The notes: generated from the sequence alone by a model not told the origin. A DNA stretch of 29,757 nucleotides from Patescibacteria group bacterium (GCA_030016465.1 JASEJL010000001.1:1-29757), one strand, 5' to 3'. Positions 13,889-27,573 are shown, counted from the first letter of the stretch. A program made the numbers and translations.

Positions 13889-14347
13889 ATGGTCAAATTT
13901 TATTTAACAACTCATTCTTCCCAAACAAAAAAATTGGGAGAAAATTTAGCTAAAGAAATTCTTAAAACCAGAACTAAAAAGAAAACCTTAATTATTGGTC
14001 TGGAAGGAGAGCTGGGTGGAGGCAAAACAACTTTCCTTCAGGGATTCGCCCGAGGCTTGGGAATAAAGGAGAAAATACTAAGCCCAACTTTCGTTATTAT
14101 AAAAAAATTTTCAATTTTCAATTTTCAATTTTCAAATTTTTATCACGTTGATTGTTATCGTCTAGAAAAACCAAACGAAATTTTAAATTTAGGATTCAAA
14201 AAGATTATTTCTAATCCTCAGAACATCGTAGCTATTGAATGGGCAGATAAAATTAAAAAAATTTTACCCAAAAACTCCATAATTTTAAAATTTAAATTCG
14301 TCAATAAAAATAGTCGGAAAATATGGTTGATGAAAAGAAAAAATTAA
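13889..14347 (+). CDS. tsaE: tRNA t6A biosynthesis ATPase TsaE
   Basis: LEGELGGGKTTF, SPTF, YHVDCYRL, IEWAD. Confidence 0.95.
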   Translation: MVKFYLTTHSSQTKKLGENLAKEILKTRTKKKTLIIGLEGELGGGKTTFLQGFARGLGIKEKILSPTFVIIKKFSIFNFQFSNFYHVDCYRLEKPNEILNLGFKKIISNPQNIVAIEWADKIKKILPKNSIILKFKFVNKNSRKIWLMKRKN

Positions 14348-15327
14348 TTATTATTGATTCTAATTCTATTATTCATCGGACTTATCACGCTCTGCCGCCT
14401 TTGACGACAAAAAAAGGAGAGAAGGTTTCCGCGGTTTATGGATTTTTATTGGTCTTTTTTAAAGTCATAAAAGAATTTCAGCCAGATTTTATTGCCGCCA
14501 CTTTTGATTTCCCAGCTCCTACTTTTCGTCACAAAAAATTTAAAGAATACAAAGCCAAGCGTCCGCCAGCACCAGAAGAACTTTATCAGCAAATTCCCAA
14601 AGTCAAAGAAGTTTTAAAAGCTTTCAATGTTCCTATTTTTGAAAAAGAGGGTTTTGAGGCAGATGATATTATTGGAACCATTGCCAAAGCAGCTCCTAAA
14701 AAACAAGCTATTCCGCCGATAGAAACTATCATTTTAAGTGGCGATTTAGATACTTTACAGTTAGTTAATGAGAAAACCAAAGTTTATACTTTAAGAAAAG
14801 GAGTGAAAGATATTGTTTTCTATGATAAAATCGAAGTTGAGAAAAAATACGGGATTTTGCCCAATCAACTTCTTGATTTTAAGGCCTTAAGAGGGGATCC
14901 ATCTGATAACATTCCAGGAGTGACTGGAATAGGCGAAAAAACAGCAATAGAGCTAATTAAAGAATTTGGAAGTTTGGAGAATTTATATAAAGAGCTCGAA
15001 GATTCATCCCAAAAAACCAAAAAACTTAAACCTAAATTAAGAGAAATCTTACTGAAATATAAAGAGCAAGCTTTTTTTAGCAAAGCCTTGGCTAAAATAG
15101 AAAAAGATGTGCCAGTTGATTTTAATTTGAAGAAATGCCAATGGGAGAAAAAATATAATAGAAAAAGAATAACTCAAATTTTAAAAAGATTAGAATTTCA
15201 GACCTTAATTAAAAGATTGCCAGAACTTACAAAATCTAAACAAAATGGTAAAATAAAAAAAGTAAACGTCGATCAACCCCGAAGCAAAATAAATTTGCAA
15301 CAGGACAGGCAAAAAACACTATTTTAA
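14323..15327 (+). CDS. Stand-alone 5'-3' exonuclease/flap endonuclease (PolA N-terminal domain)
   Basis: IDSNSIIHRTYHA, YKAKR, EADDIIGT, SGDLD, GDPSDNIPGVTGIGEKTA. No polymerase domain. Confidence 0.93.
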   Translation: MVDEKKKLIIIDSNSIIHRTYHALPPLTTKKGEKVSAVYGFLLVFFKVIKEFQPDFIAATFDFPAPTFRHKKFKEYKAKRPPAPEELYQQIPKVKEVLKAFNVPIFEKEGFEADDIIGTIAKAAPKKQAIPPIETIILSGDLDTLQLVNEKTKVYTLRKGVKDIVFYDKIEVEKKYGILPNQLLDFKALRGDPSDNIPGVTGIGEKTAIELIKEFGSLENLYKELEDSSQKTKKLKPKLREILLKYKEQAFFSKALAKIEKDVPVDFNLKKCQWEKKYNRKRITQILKRLEFQTLIKRLPELTKSKQNGKIKKVNVDQPRSKINLQQDRQKTLF

Positions 15328-15871: not shown

Positions 15872-15931
15872 AGATACTCCTTTGTAATAGTTAACTTGAA
15901 TTCTTCTTTTGAAAAGGAGGAAAATTTTTAA

Positions 15932-16290
15932 ATGGAAATAGAATTAAGGAAAATAAAAATATCCTTTCTTTTTGATTCGATTGCCAGAGAATACAATGGT
16001 TACATGAAAAAACCGGCCATCAAAGAACTCAAGAGAAAATCCTTCAGAAACTTTATGGGAAAATAAATGAGAAAGTGCTTGATTGATATAGCTACCGGAA
16101 CGGGACTTTTGGCTTTAAAGATAAAGACGAATTGTCTAAAAATTGAAGTCACTGGAATGATATCTCAGAGGAAATGATTAAGGAGGCAAAAAGAAAAAGC
16201 CAAAGAGCAAGGTTAAAAATTAATTTTTTGGTAGCCGATGTCGAAAAATTAAATTTTCCAGATAAATCATTTGATAGGATAATTTGTTTC
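15932..16290 (+). pseudogene. Class I SAM-dependent methyltransferase (UbiE/MenG-like) remnant
   Basis: Stitched reading FDSIAREY..IDIATGTGLLA..DISEEMIKEAK..VADVEKLNFPDKSFD. It has frameshifts and is truncated by the repeat starting at 16288. AGGAGG lies upstream. Confidence 0.75.
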
Positions 16291-16518
16291 TTGTATAGCA
16301 ATTTCAATAATTCCTATATAAAAGCAGCTCTAATTTTACCATGTCAAAAAAGATAAAAAGATCACAAACTACTAAGCATTATTTAACCTTGGCAACACAG
16401 AGAGCAAAATAGTGCTTAGAACCAGCTAACTGAATGAGTGAGTTGTCAAAAGAAAATACTTCCCAAAATTAGCGCAAAATATTTCAAAATTTTCTAAAGG
16501 AAAAAATTTGCTTAGATG
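16288..16518. repeat. Dispersed repeat, copy 1 (inverted relative to 26087-26303)
   Basis: The first 71 nt match the reverse complement of 26233-26303 with 1 mismatch; similarity decays over the rest. Confidence 0.9.
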
Positions 16519-16583
16519 CGAGTTTATATTTTCTGCCCTGCAATTATGTTAGCTATAAATTAATTGTTGCTAGAGAATTAAAA

Positions 16584-17228
16584 ATGATACAATTAAAAAA
16601 AAAGATTGAGAGTATAAAAATAAACATGACCAAAAACCAAATTACTAAAGAAGAAATTGAAAAATTGATGAAAATTCCTGGTGAAATAAGAGGAGACGCA
16701 TTGATGGTTCTTCTTAATACCATAAAAGAAAAAGAAGGAGAAAAAGAAGCAGAGCTATTTAAAAAGAAAATGGGAGAATTAGGATTTTCTTTTGATAAGA
16801 TAGATTATCTAAAATGGTGTCCAGTAGGTTTTTTGGCAATATCTTTATTAATAATGAAGGAAATTTTTAATTGGGATGAAAAAGATTTTTTTGAGCTTGG
16901 GAATTTATCTTTTAAAATGGGCTTTATTCCCAGGATATTATCTAAATATTTTGCCTCTGTTTCAAGAATCCTTAAAGAAGCTCCAAAAATTTGGGCAAAA
17001 TTTCATACCTCTGGCAAATTAGAACTCTACCAACTCAATGAAAAAAAGAAATTTACTATTCTTCGTTTAAAGGAGTATAAAATTCATCCTCTGGTCTGTA
17101 ATGTTAATAGAGGTGCCTTTCTCCGGATTGCCCAGTATGTAATCAAAAGTAAAAAAATAACTATTGAGGAAACAAAATGTATGTTTAAAGGCGATCCCTA
17201 TCATGAATTTTTAATAAGATGGGAATAA
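16584..17228 (+). CDS. V4R-like (DUF2378-like) ligand-binding protein; the start may be ATG 16626
   Basis: C-terminal IEETKCMFKGDPYHEFLIRW resembles the V4R end motif; soluble protein directly upstream of the PAS gene. Confidence 0.6.
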   Translation: MIQLKKKIESIKINMTKNQITKEEIEKLMKIPGEIRGDALMVLLNTIKEKEGEKEAELFKKKMGELGFSFDKIDYLKWCPVGFLAISLLIMKEIFNWDEKDFFELGNLSFKMGFIPRILSKYFASVSRILKEAPKIWAKFHTSGKLELYQLNEKKKFTILRLKEYKIHPLVCNVNRGAFLRIAQYVIKSKKITIEETKCMFKGDPYHEFLIRWE

Positions 17229-17234
17229 TTAGAC

Positions 17235-17948
17235 ATGAAGACAGAATTAATTTTTCTTTCAAAGGAACTTGAGAAAACTAAAGAAGACTTAATTGATTTA
17301 CAAAGATACCTCGAAGAACTTTCCAATTTTTTGCCTTTAGCTGTCTGCACAACAAATCCCTTAGAAATCATTATTGATATCAATAAAGCTTTTGAGGTTC
17401 TCACTCATTACACTACTATAGAAATAGTAGGAGAACCAATAGAAATTCTTTTTTTAGAAAAAAAGAAATTTAAAGAATTTTTAACAAAGATAATTAAAGA
17501 AAAGACAATTTATAATACAGAACTGACTTTAATCTCTAAAGAAAAAAAAGAAATTTCAGTTAGTGTTTCTGGAGCTTTGAGAAAAGATGAAAAAGGAGAT
17601 TTTATTGGCTGTTTTTTTGCAATTACAAACATTACCGAACTCAAAGAACTTCAAGAAAATTTAGAAAAAAAAGTTAAAGAAAGAACTAAAGAGTTAGAAG
17701 AATCAAAAGCTGCTTTAGAAGAAGCCAAGGCAGTTTTAGAAATAAAAGTTCAGGCCAGAACTAAAGAATTAAGAGAGTTAGCTGAAGGACTAGAAGTAGA
17801 GGTAGAAAGAAGAACTAAAGAGGTTCGAGAAAGAATGGAAGAGTTAGAAAAATTCCACAGGTTGGCTGTTGGTCGAGAATTAAAAATGATTGAGTTAAAA
17901 AAAGAAATTGAGAGATTAAAAAGAGAACTGAAAGAATCCAAAAAATGA
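17235..17948 (+). CDS. PAS-domain sensor with S-helix repeats and a VGRELKM tail; no kinase domain
   Basis: PAS core (IIDINKAFEVLTHYTTIEIVGEPIEIL..GDFIGCFFAITNITE), three xERTKE-type helices, then EELEKFHRLAVGRELKMIELKKEI. Confidence 0.85.
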   Translation: MKTELIFLSKELEKTKEDLIDLQRYLEELSNFLPLAVCTTNPLEIIIDINKAFEVLTHYTTIEIVGEPIEILFLEKKKFKEFLTKIIKEKTIYNTELTLISKEKKEISVSVSGALRKDEKGDFIGCFFAITNITELKELQENLEKKVKERTKELEESKAALEEAKAVLEIKVQARTKELRELAEGLEVEVERRTKEVRERMEELEKFHRLAVGRELKMIELKKEIERLKRELKESKK

Positions 17949-18245
17949 AAATTTTAATTGCTTATTATTCAAGAACTGGCGAAACAGAAAAAGTAGCCGA
18001 AGTTCTTAAAAAAGTTTGAGCTCGAGGGCACACTGTTGATGTAGAAAAAGTTAGACCACTAAAGGAACTCAGCTTTAGAGGCTGGTTTTTAATTCGGATG
18101 ATTAAAAGAGAATGCGAAATTGAAGAACTTAAAATTAAGGATGTCTCAAAATACAATGTAATTTGCATTGATAATCCTAATTGGATCGGATTTTCTTTAC
18201 CCATGGCAAGGTATCTCCGAGAAGCTGAAGGGTTAAAATATAAAA
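17945..18245 (+). pseudogene. Flavodoxin-like protein remnant
   Basis: MKILIAYYSRTGETEKVAE flavodoxin P-loop; ATGA overlap with the PAS stop; in-frame TGA at 18017; 3' end replaced by the exonuclease duplicate. Confidence 0.8.
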
Positions 18246-19093
18246 ATTTTTATTGGTCTTTTTTAAAGTCATAAAAGAATTTCAGCCAGATTTTATTGCC
18301 GCCATTTTTGACTACCCGACTCTCCTACCTTTCGACATAAAAAATATAAAGAGTATAAAATTAGTCGTCCCCCGGCCCCAGAAGAGCTCCCCTAACAGAT
18401 TCCTAAAGTAAAAGAGATTTTAAAAGCTTTTTCCGTGCCAATTTTTGAAAAAGAAGGTTTTGAAGCCGACGACATTATTGGAACCATTTCTCATTTAGCC
18501 CCCAAAAAAACAAGTTTTACCTGAGATTGAAACTATTGTTTTAACCGGGGGTCTCGATACTCTCCAGCTAATCGATCCCCACACCATTTATACTTTAAGA
18601 AGAGGAGTTAAAGAGGCTTTTTAAGAGGCTGTTTTATATGATGTAGGGGCAGTTAAACAAAGATTCGACGGACTCACTCCAAAACAACTTCCTGATTTAA
18701 AGGCCCTCAAAGGAGATCCTTCTGATAACATCCCGGGAGTTTCTGGAAGAGGGGAGAAAATTGCTATTGAATTATAAAAGAATTTGAAGACCTAGAAAAA
18801 CTTTACCAAAATTTAGAACAAAAAATTGACAAAGCTAAAAAATTAAAACCAAAATTAAAAGAAAACTTGCTTCGATTTAAAGATCAAGCTTTTTTAGTAA
18901 GATGTTAGCTGAAATTTCCCAGGCAGCGCCAATAGATTTCGCTTTAAAAAAATGCCACTGGAAAAAGTACAATAGAGGAAGAGTAGTCGAACTTCTTAAA
19001 AAGCTTGAATTTCACAGCTTAATTAAAAGATTACCCGAAGCAAAAGGACAAACTGATAAAGGTTCAATAATTGAAGAAGATTTGAAGTTGTAG
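18246..19093 (+). pseudogene. Second, 5'-truncated and decayed copy of the 5'-3' exonuclease gene
   Basis: 18246-18304 is identical to 14442-14500; the rest is diverged (EGFEADDIIGTI, GDPSDNIPG) with in-frame TAA codons and frameshifts. Confidence 0.92.
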
Positions 19094-19157
19094 TAAAATA
19101 AAAACCAAGGCAAAGGTCGGATTATAAAAATCTTAAAAAATAAAAAAAGAGGTACAA

Positions 19158-19745
19158 ATGCCAAAGAAAAAAATTCTGATGTTAGTGGGGGACTATGTGG
19201 AAGACTATGAAGCGATGGTCCCTTTCCAAATGTTGACCATGGTTGGGCATAAGGTTGATACAGTTTGTCCAGATAAGAAAGCTGGCGAAACAGTGAAGAC
19301 AGCTGTTCACGACTTCACTGGCGAACAGACCTATAGTGAAAAGCCAGGCCACAACTTCGCTCTCACCGCAACATTTGAGGAGATCGATCCGAAAGATTAC
19401 GATGGCTTGGTCATTCCAGGAGGGCGGGCACCAGAATATATTCGACTGAATGAAAAGGTGCTTTCTATTGTCCGCCACTTTATGGAGAACAACAAGCCCG
19501 TTGCTTCGATTTGCCATGGCCAGCAGGTATTGGCAGCCGCCGGCGTTCTCAAGGGGAAGTCTTGTACAGCCTATCCAGCAATTAAACCTGAGGTGGTTGG
19601 GGCTGGTGCTAACTGGCTTGAGCCAAACGAGACTTTCTCCAATGCTTACGTAGACGGAAATCTGGTAACAGCAGTAGCTTGGCCTGGTCATCCGGAATGG
19701 ATAAGAAAGTTCCTCGAAGTGCTTGGCACAAAAATTGAACCCTAA
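19158..19745 (+). CDS. DJ-1/PfpI family protein (glyoxalase/deglycase/peptidase C56)
   Basis: [17 protein letters not shown], nucleophile elbow ICHG. Visibly more GC-rich than its neighbours. Confidence 0.95.
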
Positions 19746-19963
19746 GAACTGAAATCAAAACCTAGTTTAAACTGACCTTTGCCAAAAGGGAAGGAAGGCG
19801 ATAGTTTCGATCGCGATTTTCTTGAGGGAAGATTCTACTCGCTTTCCTTCTCTCCTAACTTTATTATCAATTGCGGAAACTATCTCGAAATAAATAAAAA
19901 ACTTCATTAGAAATTTCTAATCAGATAAAGGTCGAAAAAAAATAAATTAAAATAAGATAAATT

Positions 19964-21319
19964 ATGGATAAAAGAATTATTATTGTGGTGATAGTGGCTA
20001 TTTTGGTTGGAATTGGAATTTGGTGGGTAGCCCAGATGCCCAAAGAAGAAAAGCCAATCGAAGTTTTACCGGAGGTAAAACCCAAAATAGTGGTAGGAGA
20101 TGTGGGTTACGGTTGGAGTGTAAAAGATGACCCCAAAGAAGCAGTAAAAGAAGCAGTTTCTTTGATGAAGCAGAGACTGGGAGAAAAATCTCCAAAGTAT
20201 GTTCTTTGTTTTATTGGTATTGGCAAAGGGAATGTTGGTTATGATGCCGAGGAAGTGATAGCTGAGCTTAGAAATCAACTCGGCCCTGAAGTTCGGATTC
20301 ATGGTGGAAGTTCAAGCCTTGGAGTTTTAACCAAAGAAGGCTTTCATATTGGTGAGGTTGGCTCATTAGCCCTAATAGGCGTGGTTTCAGAAAGAATGGA
20401 CTTTGGGGTAGGTGGGATAAGTTTAGACGAGCTTTCTCCTAAAGAGGCTGGGAAAAAAGCTATAGAGCTGGCTATGGAAAATGCCCCGAAAGAAGGACTT
20501 CCTCAAATTGTCTATATGACCGCCTCTCCCGGAGTAGAAGAGGAGATACTCCCTGGTATTGAAGAAATTTTAGGAATCGACATTCCGATAATTGGAGGAA
20601 GTGGGGGAGATAATGATCTAACCGGAAAATGGTGGGGAGTAGCCAATGATCAACTCTATAAAAATGGTGTTGTTCTAACTGCTGTTTATACCGATTTGAA
20701 GATCGGCTACGCTTACGAACATAGTTATAATGTTAGCGAAAAGAAAGGCGTTGTTACTAAAGCTAAAGGAAGAAGACTTTATGAGATTGACGGAAGACCG
20801 GCAGCCGAGGTGTATAATGAATGGACCGGAGGTCTGGTGGAAGAAATCCTTAAAGAAGGAGGAATAATTCTTCATGAAGTTGCTGCTTTTTATCCTCTAG
20901 CCAGAGGGGTGAAAGGGAAAGGAGAGGAAGTTTTTTATATTTCTGTTATGCCATACATAGTAAATGAGGATAAATCATTAGGCCTTTTTGCCAATATGGA
21001 AGATGGAGATGAGGTTTTGCTGCTACACGGGACTTGGGAATTACTTTTGAATCGTGCTTATTCCACTCCTCGTGAAGCCATGGCAACCAAAGCAATTTCT
21101 CCAGAAAAGGGATTGTTTGGAATTTATACTTTCTGCACCGGGACGATGTTCGCAGTACCTGAGACAGAAAGAGCAAAATTCCCAGTTTTTGTTAATAATG
21201 CCTTGGGTGGCATTCCTTTCGTGGGCACTTTTACTTTGGGTGAGCAAATTTTCTTGCCAGGCGCAGGAAATAGACATTGCAATCTTGTTAATTCAATGAT
21301 TGTTTTCAGTGAAGAATAA
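19964..21319 (+). CDS. Membrane-anchored FIST (FIST_N/FIST_C) sensor protein
   Basis: N-terminal signal anchor; PIIGGSGGDND, LYEIDGRPAAEVY, GTFTLGEQ FIST motifs. Confidence 0.88.
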   Translation: MDKRIIIVVIVAILVGIGIWWVAQMPKEEKPIEVLPEVKPKIVVGDVGYGWSVKDDPKEAVKEAVSLMKQRLGEKSPKYVLCFIGIGKGNVGYDAEEVIAELRNQLGPEVRIHGGSSSLGVLTKEGFHIGEVGSLALIGVVSERMDFGVGGISLDELSPKEAGKKAIELAMENAPKEGLPQIVYMTASPGVEEEILPGIEEILGIDIPIIGGSGGDNDLTGKWWGVANDQLYKNGVVLTAVYTDLKIGYAYEHSYNVSEKKGVVTKAKGRRLYEIDGRPAAEVYNEWTGGLVEEILKEGGIILHEVAAFYPLARGVKGKGEEVFYISVMPYIVNEDKSLGLFANMEDGDEVLLLHGTWELLLNRAYSTPREAMATKAISPEKGLFGIYTFCTGTMFAVPETERAKFPVFVNNALGGIPFVGTFTLGEQIFLPGAGNRHCNLVNSMIVFSEE

Positions 21320-21350
21320 GTCCAATTCAAACGATTGGATTTAGAATTTT

Positions 21351-22307
21351 ATGCTAAAAAGAGGGATGTTTAGCAAAATTTTTGGCTTGATAGTAGTAAT
21401 GTCTCTTGTGATTGGGATATTAATTTTAGTTGTAACTATAAGAGAACGAACTAAAGCCGTTGAGGAAGCTTTAGTGCAAAAAAATAAACTATTGGTTAAA
21501 GTAGCTTCCAAAAATATTGAATCGGGGTATTATGCCCAGGTTCTACCGTTAGAGACATTAAGACTTATCAGTGCTTCCGAAGACACTCTCTTTTTGTGGG
21601 TAGTAAAACCAAGCGGAGAAATTTATTTAGCCGATAATCCCCAGATGCTTGGCAAAATAATCGATGATCCTTCTTTAGGGACAGAAAGAGTGGTAGTAAG
21701 AGATAGTGTTTATCCAAAAGATGGTAAAAAAATAAAATTAATTGTTCAACCTATTGGAATTAAAGAAGAAGGGAAACCCTGGAGTCTTTTTCTGGGAGTT
21801 TCTCTGGAGCCAGTTGTTGCTGCTCGAAGAACAATAATTGCTCATAGCCTCGATTTTTTGGTTCTGACTATTATTTTTATTGCCCTCATTTCCTTCTATT
21901 TTGCCAAAGAAGTGACTAACCCCTTAAAGCATCTTAGAGAGGGAGCAGAAACTATTGGCAAAGGAAATCTTGATTATCGAATTAAGATAAAGACCGGGGA
22001 TGAAATTGAGGAATTAGCGAATGCTTTTAACAAAATGGCCGAAGATTTAAAAAGATCTTACACTGCTCTAGAAGAATCTAAAAAAGTCCTTGAAATAAAA
22101 GTTGCAGCCAGAACTAAAGAATTAAAAGAGCTTGCTGAAGGATTGGAAGAAGAGGTTGAAAGAAGGACTAAAGAGGTTCGAGAAAGAATGGAAGAATTAG
22201 AAAAATTCCATCGATTAGCAGTCGGCCGAGAATTGAAAATGGTTGAGCTAAAGAAAGAAATTAAGAAATTAAAAAAAGAATTAGAAAAATATAAGCCAAG
22301 CACATAA
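21351..22307 (+). CDS. Two-TM sensor with an extracytoplasmic domain, HAMP and a VGRELKM tail; no kinase domain
   Basis: TM1 about aa 9-29, TM2 about aa 168-185, HAMP (NPLKHLREGAETIGKGNLDYRI..DEIEELANAFNKM), then a coiled-coil tail. Confidence 0.9.
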   Translation: MLKRGMFSKIFGLIVVMSLVIGILILVVTIRERTKAVEEALVQKNKLLVKVASKNIESGYYAQVLPLETLRLISASEDTLFLWVVKPSGEIYLADNPQMLGKIIDDPSLGTERVVVRDSVYPKDGKKIKLIVQPIGIKEEGKPWSLFLGVSLEPVVAARRTIIAHSLDFLVLTIIFIALISFYFAKEVTNPLKHLREGAETIGKGNLDYRIKIKTGDEIEELANAFNKMAEDLKRSYTALEESKKVLEIKVAARTKELKELAEGLEEEVERRTKEVRERMEELEKFHRLAVGRELKMVELKKEIKKLKKELEKYKPST

Positions 22308-22374
22308 AGAAATTATGTGCTTAGTAAAGGTCGACATGATAAAATAATAAAATTAATCAAAAATAAATTAAACT

Positions 22375-23553
22375 ATGATTAAAGCTGGAGTAGGAAGAAG
22401 TAATAACCCTGATCCTATCAAAGCCGGAGCTGAAGCTTGTGAAAAAGCCTTAACTCAGGCTGGCGACAAAGCTGATTTAATAGTTGTTTTTTCTACTGTT
22501 GCCTATGACCAGAAAAAAATGCTGGAAGGGGTGAGATCTATTTCTAAAGAAACTCCTCTAGTAGGCTGTAGTGATTCTGGGGAAATTACCGGAGAAGGGC
22601 CAGTTTCAAAACATGTGGCGGTGATGGCTTTAAGTTCAGACACCATTGATTTTACCATTGGAGTGGGAGAGGGAACAGATAAGGATTCTCATAAAGCTGG
22701 AGCTGAGGCTGCTAGAGAGATAAAGAAAAAAGCTAAGGGAGATATTTCTTTGTTTACAATGTTGTTGGATGGCCTGGCTGAAAATGGAGCAGCAGCAGTG
22801 AGAGGAGTTCAGGAGGTTTTTGGAAAAAACTTCCCAATAATGGGAGGCTCAGCCGGAGACGACTTTCAGTTCAAGAACACCTATGAATACTTCAATGATC
22901 AAGTTTTGAGTAATGCTGTAATCGGGATTGGGTTTTCTGGTAAATTTTCTTTTGGGGTTGGTGTACGACATGGTTGGGAACCAATTGGTTTACCAATGAA
23001 AGTAACTAAAGCTGAGGGAGCGAAATTAATTGAGGTAAATAACCGGCCAGCTCTCTCTATTTATGAGGATTATTTCGGGAAGAAGGCTGAAGAATTAATC
23101 AAAGAACCGATTGCCAGAATGGCCTATACTTATCCTTTAGGAATGTCAGTTGAAGGAAGTCCAGAGCTTTTGATTCGAGATGTGGTTATCGCCGATGAGA
23201 AAGGAGTAATTACTTGTGCTGCAGAAATTCCCGAGGGTTCAGAAATCAGGTTAATGTTAGGAGATCCAGATAAGGCTATCCAGGCTGCTAAAGAAGCAGC
23301 AGAGGGAGCTTTGGCTCAGCTTAAAGGCACGGAACCAAAAGTGGTTTTTGTTTTTGACTGTATGGCTCGGAACAAGCTTTTAGGACCAAGAATTGGAGAA
23401 GAAATTGTGGCCATCCAGAATGTTCTAGGAAAAGAAGTGCCCTTAATTGGTTTTTATACCTATGGGGAACAGGCTCCTCTGGGAGGAGTGTTGGGACCAG
23501 AATGTTTTTCTGTTTTTCACAATGAAACCATGGCTTTGATGGTGCTGGGATAA
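22375..23553 (+). CDS. Cytoplasmic FIST (NosP-like) sensor protein
   Basis: PLVGCSDSGEI, PIMGGSAGDD, GWEPIG, FDCMAR, GFYTYGEQ..HNET. Confidence 0.93.
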   Translation: MIKAGVGRSNNPDPIKAGAEACEKALTQAGDKADLIVVFSTVAYDQKKMLEGVRSISKETPLVGCSDSGEITGEGPVSKHVAVMALSSDTIDFTIGVGEGTDKDSHKAGAEAAREIKKKAKGDISLFTMLLDGLAENGAAAVRGVQEVFGKNFPIMGGSAGDDFQFKNTYEYFNDQVLSNAVIGIGFSGKFSFGVGVRHGWEPIGLPMKVTKAEGAKLIEVNNRPALSIYEDYFGKKAEELIKEPIARMAYTYPLGMSVEGSPELLIRDVVIADEKGVITCAAEIPEGSEIRLMLGDPDKAIQAAKEAAEGALAQLKGTEPKVVFVFDCMARNKLLGPRIGEEIVAIQNVLGKEVPLIGFYTYGEQAPLGGVLGPECFSVFHNETMALMVLG

Positions 23554-23644
23554 ATAAAAAGCGATTAAGAGATTAAACAATTAAGAGATACTTTCTCTTC
23601 AAAGTTTTTTAATTGTTAATGAAAAAAATCCTGATAAAAAAGCT

Positions 23645-25207
23645 GTGGTAAAAGCAAGAGAAACAAAACTACAAGCTATAATTGCCGAACTTTCAGAAAT
23701 TAGCCAGAGAAGGGAAAGAGAGCTGGCTGAAATGGACCGAATTGCCAAGATGTTAGTGAGGAGAGATTTTGAGTTGTCTGAAATTAGAGAAAAGAGAGAG
23801 AAGGAGTTATCAGAGCTAGATCGGGCCGCAAAGCTTTTGATAAGAAGGGATTTAGAGCTTTCAGGAGCTATAGTTCAATTAGAAAAACAAAGGAATGAGT
23901 TAGATAGAATTGCTAAAATTTTAGTGCGGCGAGATCTGGAATTAACCGAAATGAGGGAAGAGCAAGTTAAAGAGCTTCAAGAAATGGACCGAATTGCCAA
24001 GATGTTAGTCAGGAGAGATTTTGAACTGGCGGAGATTAGAGAAAAAAGAGAGAGAGAACTTCAAGAATTAGAAAAGAGAACAAAAGAATTAGAAGAATCA
24101 AGAACTGCTCTAATGAATATATTGGAAGATGTGGAGGAGGCTCGAAAGAAGGCAGAAGAAGAAAAAGAAAAAACCCTTGCAGTTATTACCAATTTTACCG
24201 ATGGGCTGTTAGTTTTTGATAGAGAAAATAAACTTTCTTTAATTAACCCCCAGGCTGAAAATTTTTTTGATGTTAAGGGAAGAAACATAATTGGCAGACC
24301 AGTTTTGGAATTGAGCACTTTTCCAACCCTCGAACCCTTAGTGAGATTAGTGGGAAAAGAAATTAAACAAGTTTTTAGAAAAGAATTACCAATTAAAGAA
24401 AAATTCACTTTGGAGGTGTCTACTGTTCCGATGGTGAGAGAGGAAGAAAAAATAGGAACCATGGTTATTTTACATGATATTAGCCGGGAAAAAATGGTTG
24501 AGAGAATGAAAACCGAATTCGTTTCTCTGGCTGCTCATCAGCTGCGGACACCTCTTTCAGCAATTAAATGGACTCTCCGGATGCTTTTAGACGGTGACCT
24601 GGGCAAGATAACTGAAGAACAGAGAGATTTTATTGAAAAAACCTATGGCTCAAACGAAAGAATGATTGCTTTAATTAATGACCTTTTAGATGTAACCAGA
24701 ATTGAGGAAGGAAGATATCTTTACAAACCCACCCTTGCCGACTTTGAACCAATTTGCCAATTTGTAATCAACTCTTTTAAAGAAGAAATTGAAAAGAGAA
24801 AGATTAAATTCGAATTTAAAAAACCGGAAAAGAAATTACCTCAGGTTAAGGTAGATGTTGAAAAAATAAGACTGGCCATTCAGAACCTCCTCGATAACGC
24901 CATTAAATATACTCAACCTGAGGGCAAGGTGACAATTACTTTAAAATCTGGTAAAAAGGAAGTAGAGTTTTCAATTAGAGATAGCGGCGTAGGTATTCCC
25001 AGCGACCAGCAAGAAAGAGTATTTAGCAAGTTTTTTCGAGGAGCTAATGTTTTAAGAATGGAAACCGAAGGTTCGGGTCTTGGTCTTTTTATCGCTAAAA
25101 ACATTATTGAGGCCCATAATGGAAAAATCTGGTTTGAATCTGAAGAAGGGAAAGGAACAATTTTTTATTTCACTCTGCCTGTGGAAAAAGAATTTGAAGA
25201 TTTTTAA
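23645..25207 (+). CDS. Soluble PAS sensor histidine kinase with four 28-aa N-terminal repeats
   Basis: PAS domain; HisKA AAHQLRTPL; HATPase NLLDNAIKYT, DSGVGI, GSGLGL; no TM segment. An ATG at 23619 is one base out of frame across an A7 run. Confidence 0.95.
   Translation: MVKARETKLQAIIAELSEISQRRERELAEMDRIAKMLVRRDFELSEIREKREKELSELDRAAKLLIRRDLELSGAIVQLEKQRNELDRIAKILVRRDLELTEMREEQVKELQEMDRIAKMLVRRDFELAEIREKRERELQELEKRTKELEESRTALMNILEDVEEARKKAEEEKEKTLAVITNFTDGLLVFDRENKLSLINPQAENFFDVKGRNIIGRPVLELSTFPTLEPLVRLVGKEIKQVFRKELPIKEKFTLEVSTVPMVREEEKIGTMVILHDISREKMVERMKTEFVSLAAHQLRTPLSAIKWTLRMLLDGDLGKITEEQRDFIEKTYGSNERMIALINDLLDVTRIEEGRYLYKPTLADFEPICQFVINSFKEEIEKRKIKFEFKKPEKKLPQVKVDVEKIRLAIQNLLDNAIKYTQPEGKVTITLKSGKKEVEFSIRDSGVGIPSDQQERVFSKFFRGANVLRMETEGSGLGLFIAKNIIEAHNGKIWFESEEGKGTIFYFTLPVEKEFEDF
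23729..24040 (+). repeat. Four coding tandem repeats with an 84-nt (28-aa) period
   Basis: E[ML]DR[IA]AK[MLI]L[VI]RRD[FL]EL starts at aa 29, 57, 85 and 113. Units 1 and 4 are near-identical in DNA (23729 versus 23981). Confidence 0.92.
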
Positions 25208-25228
25208 AAGACTTTAAAAATAAAAAGG

Positions 25229-25257
25229 TTGACAATATTAACCTAAAAGAATAGAAT
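25229..25257 (+). promoter_or_regulatory. Sigma70 promoter for the receiver pair, probably giving a leaderless or near-leaderless mRNA
   Basis: TTGACA (25229-25234), 17-nt spacer, TAGAAT (25252-25257), then ATG 8 nt later. Confidence 0.7.
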
Positions 25258-25265
25258 AAAATAAG

Positions 25266-25637
25266 ATGGCAAAGAAAATTTTATTAGTTGAGGACGAAGA
25301 AATTATAATTAGTCTCCTTCAAAGAAAATTAACCCAAGAAGGTTATGAAGTTTTGCTTGCTAGAGATGGCGAGGAGGGATTAAAAGCAATGAGAGAAGTA
25401 AAGCCTAACCTTGTTTTGCTGGATATCATTATGCCTAAAATGGGAGGATTTGAGGTGATGGAGGAAATGATAAAAGATAAAGAATTAAAGGAAATTCCAG
25501 TAATTATTATTTCCAATTCTGGTCAGCCGGTGGAGTTAGATCAGGCTCAAAAATTGGGAGCAAAAGATTGGTTGATTAAAACCGAATTTGATCCTCAGGA
25601 AGTAGTAAATAAAGTAGTAAAACAAATCGGAAGATAA
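25266..25637 (+). CDS. Single-domain (CheY-like) response regulator
   Basis: LLVEDE, LLDIIMPKMGGFE, IISNS, WLIK. Confidence 0.95.
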   Translation: MAKKILLVEDEEIIISLLQRKLTQEGYEVLLARDGEEGLKAMREVKPNLVLLDIIMPKMGGFEVMEEMIKDKELKEIPVIIISNSGQPVELDQAQKLGAKDWLIKTEFDPQEVVNKVVKQIGR

Positions 25638-25641
25638 AAAT

Positions 25642-26010
25642 ATGGCAAAAACAATTCTAATAGTAGAGGACGATAAATTCCTCAGAGAATTAATTGCTCA
25701 AAAATTGATTAACGAAGGCTATGAGATTTCCGAGGCGGTTGACGGAGAAGAAGGAATAAAAAAGATTCAAGAAGAAAAGCCAAACCTAGTTTTGCTTGAC
25801 CTTATTTTACCAGGAATTGATGGTTTCGAGGTTTTATCTAAAATGAAAGAAGACGTGGCCTTGGCTCATATTCCAGTGATTATTCTTTCCAATCTTGGCC
25901 AAAAAGAAGATGTAGAGCGAGGATTGCAATTGGGAGCGATTGATTATTTAATTAAAGCCCATTTTACTCCTGGAGAGATTATTGAGAAAATAAAGAACGC
26001 CCTCAAGTAA
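25642..26010 (+). CDS. Single-domain (CheY-like) response regulator
   Basis: LIVEDD, LLDLILPGIDGFE, ILSNL, YLIK. Confidence 0.95.
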   Translation: MAKTILIVEDDKFLRELIAQKLINEGYEISEAVDGEEGIKKIQEEKPNLVLLDLILPGIDGFEVLSKMKEDVALAHIPVIILSNLGQKEDVERGLQLGAIDYLIKAHFTPGEIIEKIKNALK

Positions 26011-27497: not shown

Positions 27498-27573
27498 GGG
27501 CATGTAGCTCAGTGGTTAGAGCATCAAGCTTATAACTTGAGGGTCCCAGGTTCGAGTCCTGGCATGCCCACCA
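27498..27573 (+). tRNA. tRNA-Ile(UAU), CCA encoded
   Basis: Acceptor GGGCATG/CATGCCC, anticodon arm TCAAG-CT-TAT-AA-CTTGA, T arm CCAGG-TTCGAGT-CCTGG, A73, CCA. Confidence 0.95.

Follow-up and report, generated by a model that had tools for sequence, protein, structure and literature searches.

We analysed a stretch of 29,757 nucleotides from a Patescibacteria group bacterium (GCA_030016465.1, JASEJL010000001.1:1-29757; hereafter the window), which probably encodes a split two-component system made up of sensors without a kinase domain, a soluble histidine kinase and two receiver proteins. Two of the sensors end in closely similar C-terminal segments, which we call tails, and the kinase carries a helix that we named ALMNILED after its motif. 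All genes between 16.5 and 26.0 kb lie on the + strand according to open reading frame (ORF) and domain calls. The source genome comprises ~1.02 Mb in 169 contigs with 35% GC, and the named homologues come from Parcubacteria-type bacteria of the Candidate Phyla Radiation (CPR), namely Paceibacterales and Gribaldobacteria. The initial annotation had placed the system at positions 17235-26010. The ORFs and domains of that span are as it described them, but its start is wrong, as a further sensor gene at 16584-17228 and a relic tail at 16557-16625 precede it. The components of the system are as follows.

16584-17228, + strand: putative stand-alone sensor of the H-NOX/V4R superfamily, 214 residues (weak V4R match, AlphaFold2 fold match)
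17235-17948, + strand: kinase-less PAS sensor (Pfam PAS_9, 4.6e-13) with a coiled coil and no catalytic domain
17712-17948, + strand: tail of the PAS protein, with S-helix-type units KERTKEL, ARTKEL and RRTKEV, then the terminal helix EELEKFHRLAVGRELKMIELKKEI
19964-21319, + strand: FIST N+C protein with one N-terminal membrane anchor (Pfam FIST 8e-29, FIST_C 1e-11)
21351-22307, + strand: kinase-less transmembrane (TM)-HAMP sensor (Pfam HAMP 9.6e-16) with two TM segments by inspection, a coiled coil and no catalytic domain
22065-22307, + strand: tail of the TM-HAMP protein
22375-23553, + strand: putative soluble stand-alone FIST (NosP-like) sensor (Pfam FIST 2e-47, FIST_C 2.8e-35), directly upstream of the kinase
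23645-25207, + strand: soluble histidine kinase with a long N-terminal helix, the ALMNILED helix, PAS, HisKA and HATPase_c
23729-24064, + strand: four tandem 28-residue units of the kinase (E-L/M-D-R-I-A-K-M-L-V-R-R-D-F/L-E-L...)
24074-24193, + strand: ALMNILED helix RTKELEESRTALMNILEDVEEARKKAEEEKEKT, the sole non-catalytic element common to all kinases found beside tail genes
25266-25637, + strand: receiver-only response regulator RR1 (Pfam Response_reg 1.1e-23)
25642-26010, + strand: receiver-only response regulator RR2 (Pfam Response_reg 1.1e-26)

The kinase is of the classical HisKA type, with Pfam matches to HisKA (7.7e-17) and HATPase_c (7.3e-32) and the H-box AAHQLRTP. Both response regulators are CheY-like: Response_reg spans residues 5-117 of their 122-123 residues, no further domain is present, and the phosphorylation pocket reads EDE/EDD, LLD(I/L), SN and LIK by inspection. 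The output of the system would be these two stand-alone receivers, as had been proposed.

The tails of the PAS and TM-HAMP proteins are identical at 60 of 66 residues in their best window. Over 76 aligned codons the pair displays 82% nucleotide identity, with 0.95 synonymous (dS) and 0.094 nonsynonymous (dN) substitutions per site and a dN/dS ratio of 0.10. The tails are therefore old copies maintained by purifying selection, which the initial annotation had also surmised, and not products of a recent duplication. In the source genome, the VGRELKM-tail and repeat motifs are confined to three proteins: the PAS sensor, the TM-HAMP sensor and the kinase.

Each tail is built of S-helix-type units carrying an R-T signature (ERT, ART, RRT) in its first two-thirds and of a terminal helix with the consensus F-x-x-L-A-V-G-R-E-L-K-M-I-E-L-K-K-E-I. 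Residues E10, G18, R19, E20, K22, L26 and K27 of the tail are invariant, and by inspection the tail shows a regular a/d heptad pattern. In our own heptad assignment, five of the invariant residues (E10, G18, E20, K22 and K27) fall outside the a/d core, which argues for a specific partner rather than for mere dimerisation. S-helices connect an input domain to an output domain within one chain. They are coiled coils with an ERT signature in the central heptad and an Arg at core position d (Anantharaman, Balaji and Aravind 2006, PMC1592074). The tails resemble them in their KERTKEL, ARTKEL and RRTKEV segments and in the Arg of the terminal helix, which occupies position d in our assignment. In contrast to an S-helix, the tail ends the protein with no output domain after it, and the terminal GRELKM helix does not align to the S-helix units: hhalign scored it at 11.0 (probability 1.2%) against the S-helix unit of the same proteins, so that it is not itself an S-helix unit.

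We also considered whether the tail could be a degenerate helix 1 of the dimerisation and histidine phosphotransfer (DHp) domain, which would make the sensors pseudo-kinases. This reading was rejected: the hhalign score against DHp helix 1 of 103 kinases was at background (12.4, probability 1.7%), the spacing from F to G/R is one residue off that of the H-box, the tails have no Pfam HisKA match even at E<=10, and the His at position F+1 is variable (H, Q, N, Y or S).

The tail is far from being restricted to the window. A word-based search retrieved 564 proteins that share the 66-residue tail. Among the 120 tail homologues listed, 119 contain the motif 22-38 residues from the C-terminus, the exceptions within these 119 being two proteins in which a second, diverged tail copy follows the motif. 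Their input domains comprise HAMP, dCache, PAS and flavodoxin-like domains, and no HisKA, HATPase or MCPsignal domain occurs among the precomputed domains of the 120. A family profile restricted to the 41 columns of the terminal helix, searched against 1.84 billion representatives, gave 12,099 matches at E<=1e-3 and 761 at E<=1e-10, and the match lies at the extreme C-terminus in 149 of the best 150. The long matches (570-1489 residues) are multi-sensor proteins with dCache, HAMP, PAS, PocR or SBP_bac_3 domains and no kinase domain, whose tails read ...ELExF..VAVGRELRMI.LKEEIN.L...LG....Y.I; PocR and a seven-TM (7TM)-GAF arrangement further extend the range of inputs. At E<=1e-5, genome G041 alone yields 8 tail matches. 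Four of its ORFs (at loci L031-L033) and one of genome G054 (L034) encode paralogous multi-TM proteins of ~520-540 residues, all of which end in the tail and have, by inspection, an apparent GAF-like region.

Neither the tail nor the 28-residue repeat corresponds to a named family in Pfam (E<=10), NCBIfam, the PDB sequence profiles or the ESM Atlas. The motif strings likewise gave no relevant result in a full-text search. A match of the tails to the NCBIfam NosR model (E 1e-7) is probably attributable to the S-helix portion, since in a receiver (REC)-HD-GYP regulator from a related locus the corresponding linker shows an ERT S-helix only. Several tail proteins are labelled as methyl-accepting chemotaxis proteins (MCPs) by JGI. 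Judged by its sequence and position, the tail marks a very large family of what appear to be output-less sensors that the domain databases have not catalogued.

What lies next to tail genes was determined in 61 relatives from the same order, in which the non-catalytic part of the kinase (residues 134-290) served as the probe for the kinase core. The tail was found in 44 of them and the kinase core in 52, with 43 having the two together. In ~37 of the 44 tail-positive relatives, by our reading of the place tables, tail and kinase genes share a strand and the tail gene is located upstream at a distance of at most 4 kb. The gene order in 18 of the 20 loci that were fetched is conserved: one or more tail sensors, one to four V4R-like genes and/or a FIST gene, the kinase, RR1 and RR2, with the two regulators kept as a pair in 18 loci. 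The operon is flanked by housekeeping genes, namely by tsaE and a 5'-3' exonuclease gene upstream and by fpg and holA downstream.

The N-terminus of the kinase differs between loci, with PAS in most, 1-4 units of 28 residues in a few, GAF domains in one and, in the 387-residue kinase of locus L008, nothing before the ALMNILED helix. The invariant non-catalytic element of these kinases is RTKELEESR.ALMNILEDVEEAR..AEEEKNKT, that is, the ALMNILED helix. In a sample of 301 genomes of the phylum, the tail was detected in 31 and the ALMNILED helix in 24; 21 genomes have both, 10 the tail only, 3 the helix only and 267 neither. In 18 of the 21 genomes with both, the helix is encoded no more than 2.7 kb downstream of the tail on the same strand. 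HisKA kinases as a whole occur in 256 of the 301 genomes with ~957 matches (a tally that takes in the unpublished genome G212), ~2.6% of which are ALMNILED kinases; it is nonetheless this small minority that adjoins tail genes.

The same arrangement is found outside the CPR. In 5/5 non-CPR loci, 4-20 nt separate the end of the tail gene from its downstream neighbour. This neighbour encodes either a V4R protein, with a hybrid kinase gene after it, or the hybrid kinase directly; in locus L025 it is cut by the contig end. The four complete non-CPR kinases carry an AMLNIMEDLEEAR-type (ALMNILED-like) motif 25-30 residues before the H-box, and no such motif was found in one neighbouring, unrelated non-CPR kinase that was read up to the H-box. 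In L022-L024 a V4R protein of 175 residues is encoded between tail-bearing multi-sensor proteins and the hybrid kinase, as in CPR bacteria, and in L024 a REC-HD-GYP regulator follows. We also asked whether the charges of tail and ALMNILED helix complement each other; by inspection this is so for the CPR consensus but fails in the non-CPR pairs, and the idea was discarded.

Exchange of modules between sensors and kinases is a further feature of these loci. The PAS domain of the window's PAS-tail protein is homologous to the N-terminal PAS domain that is fused to the kinase in most relatives (BLASTP, residues 7-161, E to 6e-46). In relatives with the kinase-fused PAS, the V4R-like gene precedes the kinase; its place in the window, L016, L020 and L029 is before the PAS-tail gene. 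Furthermore, the kinase of locus L003 (genome G042) and protein P0264 contain the S-helix doublet of the tail (LEIKV.ARTRELKELAE.LEEKV.ERTK) in cis, right before the ALMNILED helix. The PAS homology and the cis S-helix fusions together indicate that the same modules exist in fused or separate form, with the terminal helix present only in the separate form. The L003 kinase also has the ALMNILED motif twice in tandem.

Taken by itself, the observed pattern is the following: the tail is C-terminal, occurs on many unrelated inputs, evolves under purifying selection, and is encoded just upstream of an ALMNILED kinase. On this basis we consider it probable that tail-ended sensors are coupled in trans to the ALMNILED kinase of a multi-input two-component locus. 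Several separately encoded sensors would then converge on one soluble histidine kinase, which would phosphorylate the two receiver-only proteins. The tail would couple each sensor in trans to the kinase, in the manner of accessory sensors or of chemoreceptors with a separate kinase, and the ALMNILED helix is the leading candidate for the surface that receives it. Loci of this type appear to be typical of one order of ultra-small Patescibacteria/CPR bacteria.

Several observations weigh against such a coupling. Nine of the 61 relatives have the kinase core and no detectable tail. Ten genomes of the phylum sample have the tail and no detected ALMNILED helix, the helix profile being built from one order and liable to miss diverged forms. 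The sampled genomes are related, so that the co-occurrence overstates independence, and we attach no formal probability to it. The tail genes of G041 reside on contigs other than that of its single ALMNILED kinase, and the tail gene of G054 is likewise on another contig than the ALMNILED kinase. Lastly, in protein P0154 an ALMNILED-like motif and a tail are found in one chain.

Alternatively, the tail could be a homodimerisation or stabilising coil and nothing else, in which case the sensors would signal through a different part of the protein or to a different target, for instance the receivers. The regular heptads fit this idea, as does the fact that S-helix-type coils are parallel dimerisation elements (PMC1592074). 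Among 57 sensors whose inputs are unrelated, however, a generic dimerisation coil would not stay 59-90% identical to the tail of the window; nor would it keep invariant residues off the a/d core, always form the extreme C-terminus or be tied to one rare kinase type. We regard this alternative as unlikely and retain trans coupling to the ALMNILED kinase as the preferred reading.

The kinase of the window differs from most of its relatives in its N-terminus. As noted in the initial annotation, it begins with four units of exactly 28 residues (residues 29-140), and a partial unit precedes them. The spacing is 28 residues in 64 of 66 cases among homologues, and in 120 repeat-bearing homologues a strict pattern counts 0-4 copies, inspection by eye up to 5. 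Comparison of a tail profile of 57 sequences (A1) with a repeat profile of 61 units (A3) by hhalign aligned the tail core to the repeat without gaps, in the register proposed previously, with a score of 21.7 and a probability of 67%. The best of 150 column shuffles that kept heptad positions intact scored only 17.8 (mean 11.7, standard deviation 2.2), and other coils of the same proteins (the ALMNILED helix, the S-helix and DHp helix 1) scored 10-12.6 against the tail or the repeat. The shuffle maximum and the low scores of the other coils show that the resemblance between the tail and the repeat is specific and calls for an explanation, be it a common origin or a shared partner. The ALMNILED helix shows no relation to either the tail or the repeat by hhalign.

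In the AlphaFold2 model of the kinase, one unbroken helix spans residues 3-142 and is followed by a low-confidence break and a second helix (residues 157-182), the ALMNILED helix, which leads into the PAS, DHp and catalytic (CA) domains. The single helix suggests that the repeats form a stalk and not four folded modules. The 28-residue units are lineage-specific tail-like helices of variable copy number within one long N-terminal stalk.

The initial annotation had assigned the docking function to these repeats: tails and 28-residue units would pair as complementary coiled coils, and the number of units would set the number of docked sensors. We find this improbable as a general mechanism. In its favour, the tail core and the repeat share one heptad register, in which their Arg residues coincide and are each followed by an acidic residue, and score well above the shuffles; the repeats are encoded within ~2 kb of a tail gene in all four repeat-bearing relatives; and they would be presented on an exposed 140-residue helix if the AlphaFold2 model is correct. 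The co-occurrence proposed as a check on this idea, however, is poor, with repeats in 4 of the 61 relatives and tails in 44. Partner kinases that start with PAS, GAF or nothing contain no hidden tail-like helix (hmmsearch), and the four complete non-CPR kinases, read up to the H-box, contain no 28-residue repeat. The tail cores are alike column by column in loci with repeat-bearing, PAS-type or bare kinases and do not covary with the kinase N-terminus. The numbers of tails and repeats per locus are 2/4 (the window), 1/4, 2/3, 2/2, 1/1, 1/1, 1/2, 2/1, 1/1-2, 2/0 and 2/0, with many loci at 1/0, and G041 with its 8 tail matches has no repeat. Since repeat counts of 0-5 do not follow tail counts, the repeat number does not set valency. 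The proposal that several sensors plug into one kinase therefore stands in part: gene order and module swapping support a split multi-sensor system, while the role of the repeats as its socket is not borne out. In this subgroup, the repeats may serve as an extra docking surface for tails, next to the candidate surface on the ALMNILED helix.

Besides the tail-ended sensors, the locus encodes further putative stand-alone sensors. The protein encoded at 16584-17228 reaches 19.6 bits against Pfam V4R (PF02830), for which the cut-off is 31, and V4R is detected at E<=0.01 in 9 of the 22 members of its family (best 1.5e-14). Homologues point to ATG 16626 (MTKNQITKEE...) as the likely true start of the gene. 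Its AlphaFold2 model, computed with the 22 homologues, has a mean predicted local distance difference test (pLDDT) value of 89.7 and a predicted template modelling score (pTM) of 0.83. The best PDB fold matches of the model are H-NOX proteins (TM-score 0.59-0.75, E to 4e-7), with weaker matches to TRAPP/Bet3, the MopR sensor domain and the V4R protein 2oso (TM-score 0.40/0.51). The 22-sequence alignment contains neither a conserved His nor a YxSxR motif, positions having been compared by inspection of the alignment, which makes haem binding doubtful. Near-invariant in the family are G67, P80, W137, G144, P169, E196 and G203. V4R-like proteins form a CPR-wide stand-alone sensor family whose genes stand singly or in tandem arrays of up to four ahead of the kinase, and a V4R-like gene adjoins tail genes and kinases in 13 of 21 loci.

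The two FIST proteins of the window each carry a FIST N and a FIST C domain, and neither reaches the NCBIfam NosP equivalog cut-off of 450 bits (104 bits for 22375-23553 and 57 bits for 19964-21319). The anchor of the latter consists of MDKR followed by a hydrophobic stretch, which by the positive-inside rule would put the FIST domain outside the cell, an unusual location.

The position of the soluble FIST gene leads to another explanation of the repeats, in which they are a stalk that serves a stand-alone FIST (NosP-like) sensor and not the tails. This gene lies directly upstream of 7 of the 9 repeat-bearing kinases and before no PAS-type kinase that has an upstream V4R-like gene, and NosP-type sensors have been reported to regulate kinases such as VpsS and lpg0278 (PMC8738867). 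The repeat kinases of L006 and L017, in contrast, have no FIST gene nearby, and the kinase of L008 is FIST-linked without having repeats. The tree of kinase cores did not resolve whether the repeat kinases form one clade, so the FIST association could reflect few events. As this model also leaves the resemblance between repeat and tail unexplained, we consider it highly doubtful.

Stand-alone H-NOX and NosP sensors are known to regulate histidine kinases, and the partner of an H-NOX sensor is the adjacent kinase (PMC8738867). By analogy, the H-NOX/V4R-like and FIST proteins of the window would be further stand-alone sensors of the kinase-regulating kind. The initial annotation, which knew of no characterised pathway with the architecture of this locus, overlooked the H-NOX/HnoK and NosP/NahK pairs as well as the chemoreceptor/CheA arrays. 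The stand-alone H-NOX and NosP sensors are in fact the closest characterised analogues: in H-NOX/HnoK (HqsK) and NosP/NahK (VpsS), as in the reading proposed here, a separate sensor without an output domain controls a histidine kinase (PMC8738867), and the window holds FIST proteins and an H-NOX-like fold beside its kinase. The differences are that the tail sensors are built of PAS, HAMP, dCache and other domains and have a dedicated C-terminal helix, that the FIST proteins score far below the NosP cut-off, and that the H-NOX-like protein has no conserved proximal His.

Chemoreceptor arrays, in which MCPs act through CheW on CheA, offer a second parallel. They combine many kinase-less TM-HAMP or Cache receptors that share a conserved coiled-coil end with one separate kinase. 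The window system likewise has kinase-less sensors of the TM-HAMP/Cache type with a conserved coil end and a separately encoded kinase, but neither tail protein has an MCPsignal domain (PF00015), the tail is a single helix and not the tip of a hairpin, neither CheW nor CheA takes part, and the window kinase is an ordinary HisKA kinase. Short terminal helices also join separate modules in the docking domains of modular synthases and in leucine-zipper heterodimers, to which the tail bears an analogy only and no sequence relation.

Some features of the window bear on the history of the locus or lie outside the conserved operon.

16557-16625, + strand: relic third tail LIVARELKMIQLKKKIESIK (weak tail-profile match, E 1.8e-6)
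17965-19150, + strand: remains of a second, frame-shifted 5'-3' exonuclease gene, ~1.2 kb without long ORFs
19158-19745, + strand: DJ-1/PfpI family protein (Pfam, 1.5e-51)

The relic tail shares the frame of the H-NOX/V4R-like gene and lies just ahead of its probable start, with only fragments further upstream. An intact tail-sensor gene occupies the corresponding place in relatives, which suggests that the relic is the remnant of a third such gene that has decayed. The ORF fragments at 17965-19150 match the intact 5'-3' exonuclease gene at 14323-15327. The G+C content at third codon positions (GC3) is 0.19-0.25 to the left of the exonuclease remains and 0.22-0.48 to their right, where 10 of 11 segments have values of at least 0.28; the sole low segment on the right is the HAMP-tail coil (0.22). 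The left block (relic tail, sensor and PAS-tail gene) resembles the front of L029-type loci, and the right block (exonuclease, FIST-TM, HAMP-tail, FIST and kinase genes) resembles L030- and L012-type loci. The window thus appears to have arisen by the joining of two related loci at the exonuclease gene, which would explain why it holds two diverged tails.

The DJ-1/PfpI gene was not found in 20 related loci and is probably a passenger outside the conserved operon. Fragmented ORFs at 15930-16420 display, by eye, motifs like those of class I S-adenosylmethionine (SAM)-dependent methyltransferases (LIDIATGTGLLALKI; FLVADVEKLNFPDKSFDRII), and seem to be what is left of a gene that lay between the exonuclease gene and those of the sensors. 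Promoter and terminator scans performed no better than on shuffled sequences. At 27498-27573 the window encodes a tRNA-Ile with anticodon TAT (ARAGORN).

Extending the probable coupling at this locus to the family as a whole, we tentatively suggest that the GRELKM tail and the ALMNILED helix might form a general plug and socket through which any number of sensors, encoded adjacently or scattered over the genome, could act on one kinase. This possibility, drawn from motif distribution and gene neighbourhoods, would add a third design of two-component input to those of fused sensor kinases and chemoreceptor arrays, in use from the CPR to bacteria with large genomes, and in one lineage tail-like helices would have been copied in tandem onto the kinase itself.

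Thousands of predicted PAS, HAMP, Cache, PocR and GAF sensors lack an output domain and are for this reason currently annotated as hypothetical proteins or mistaken for chemoreceptors. Should the tail be their output, their signalling partner, the ALMNILED kinase, would be predictable from sequence and the integration of multiple inputs on one kinase would become testable. The tail and its partner would also constitute a compact, modular connector between sensor and kinase for the rewiring of signalling, and would help to explain how bacteria with genomes of ~1 Mb read several signals with few kinases.

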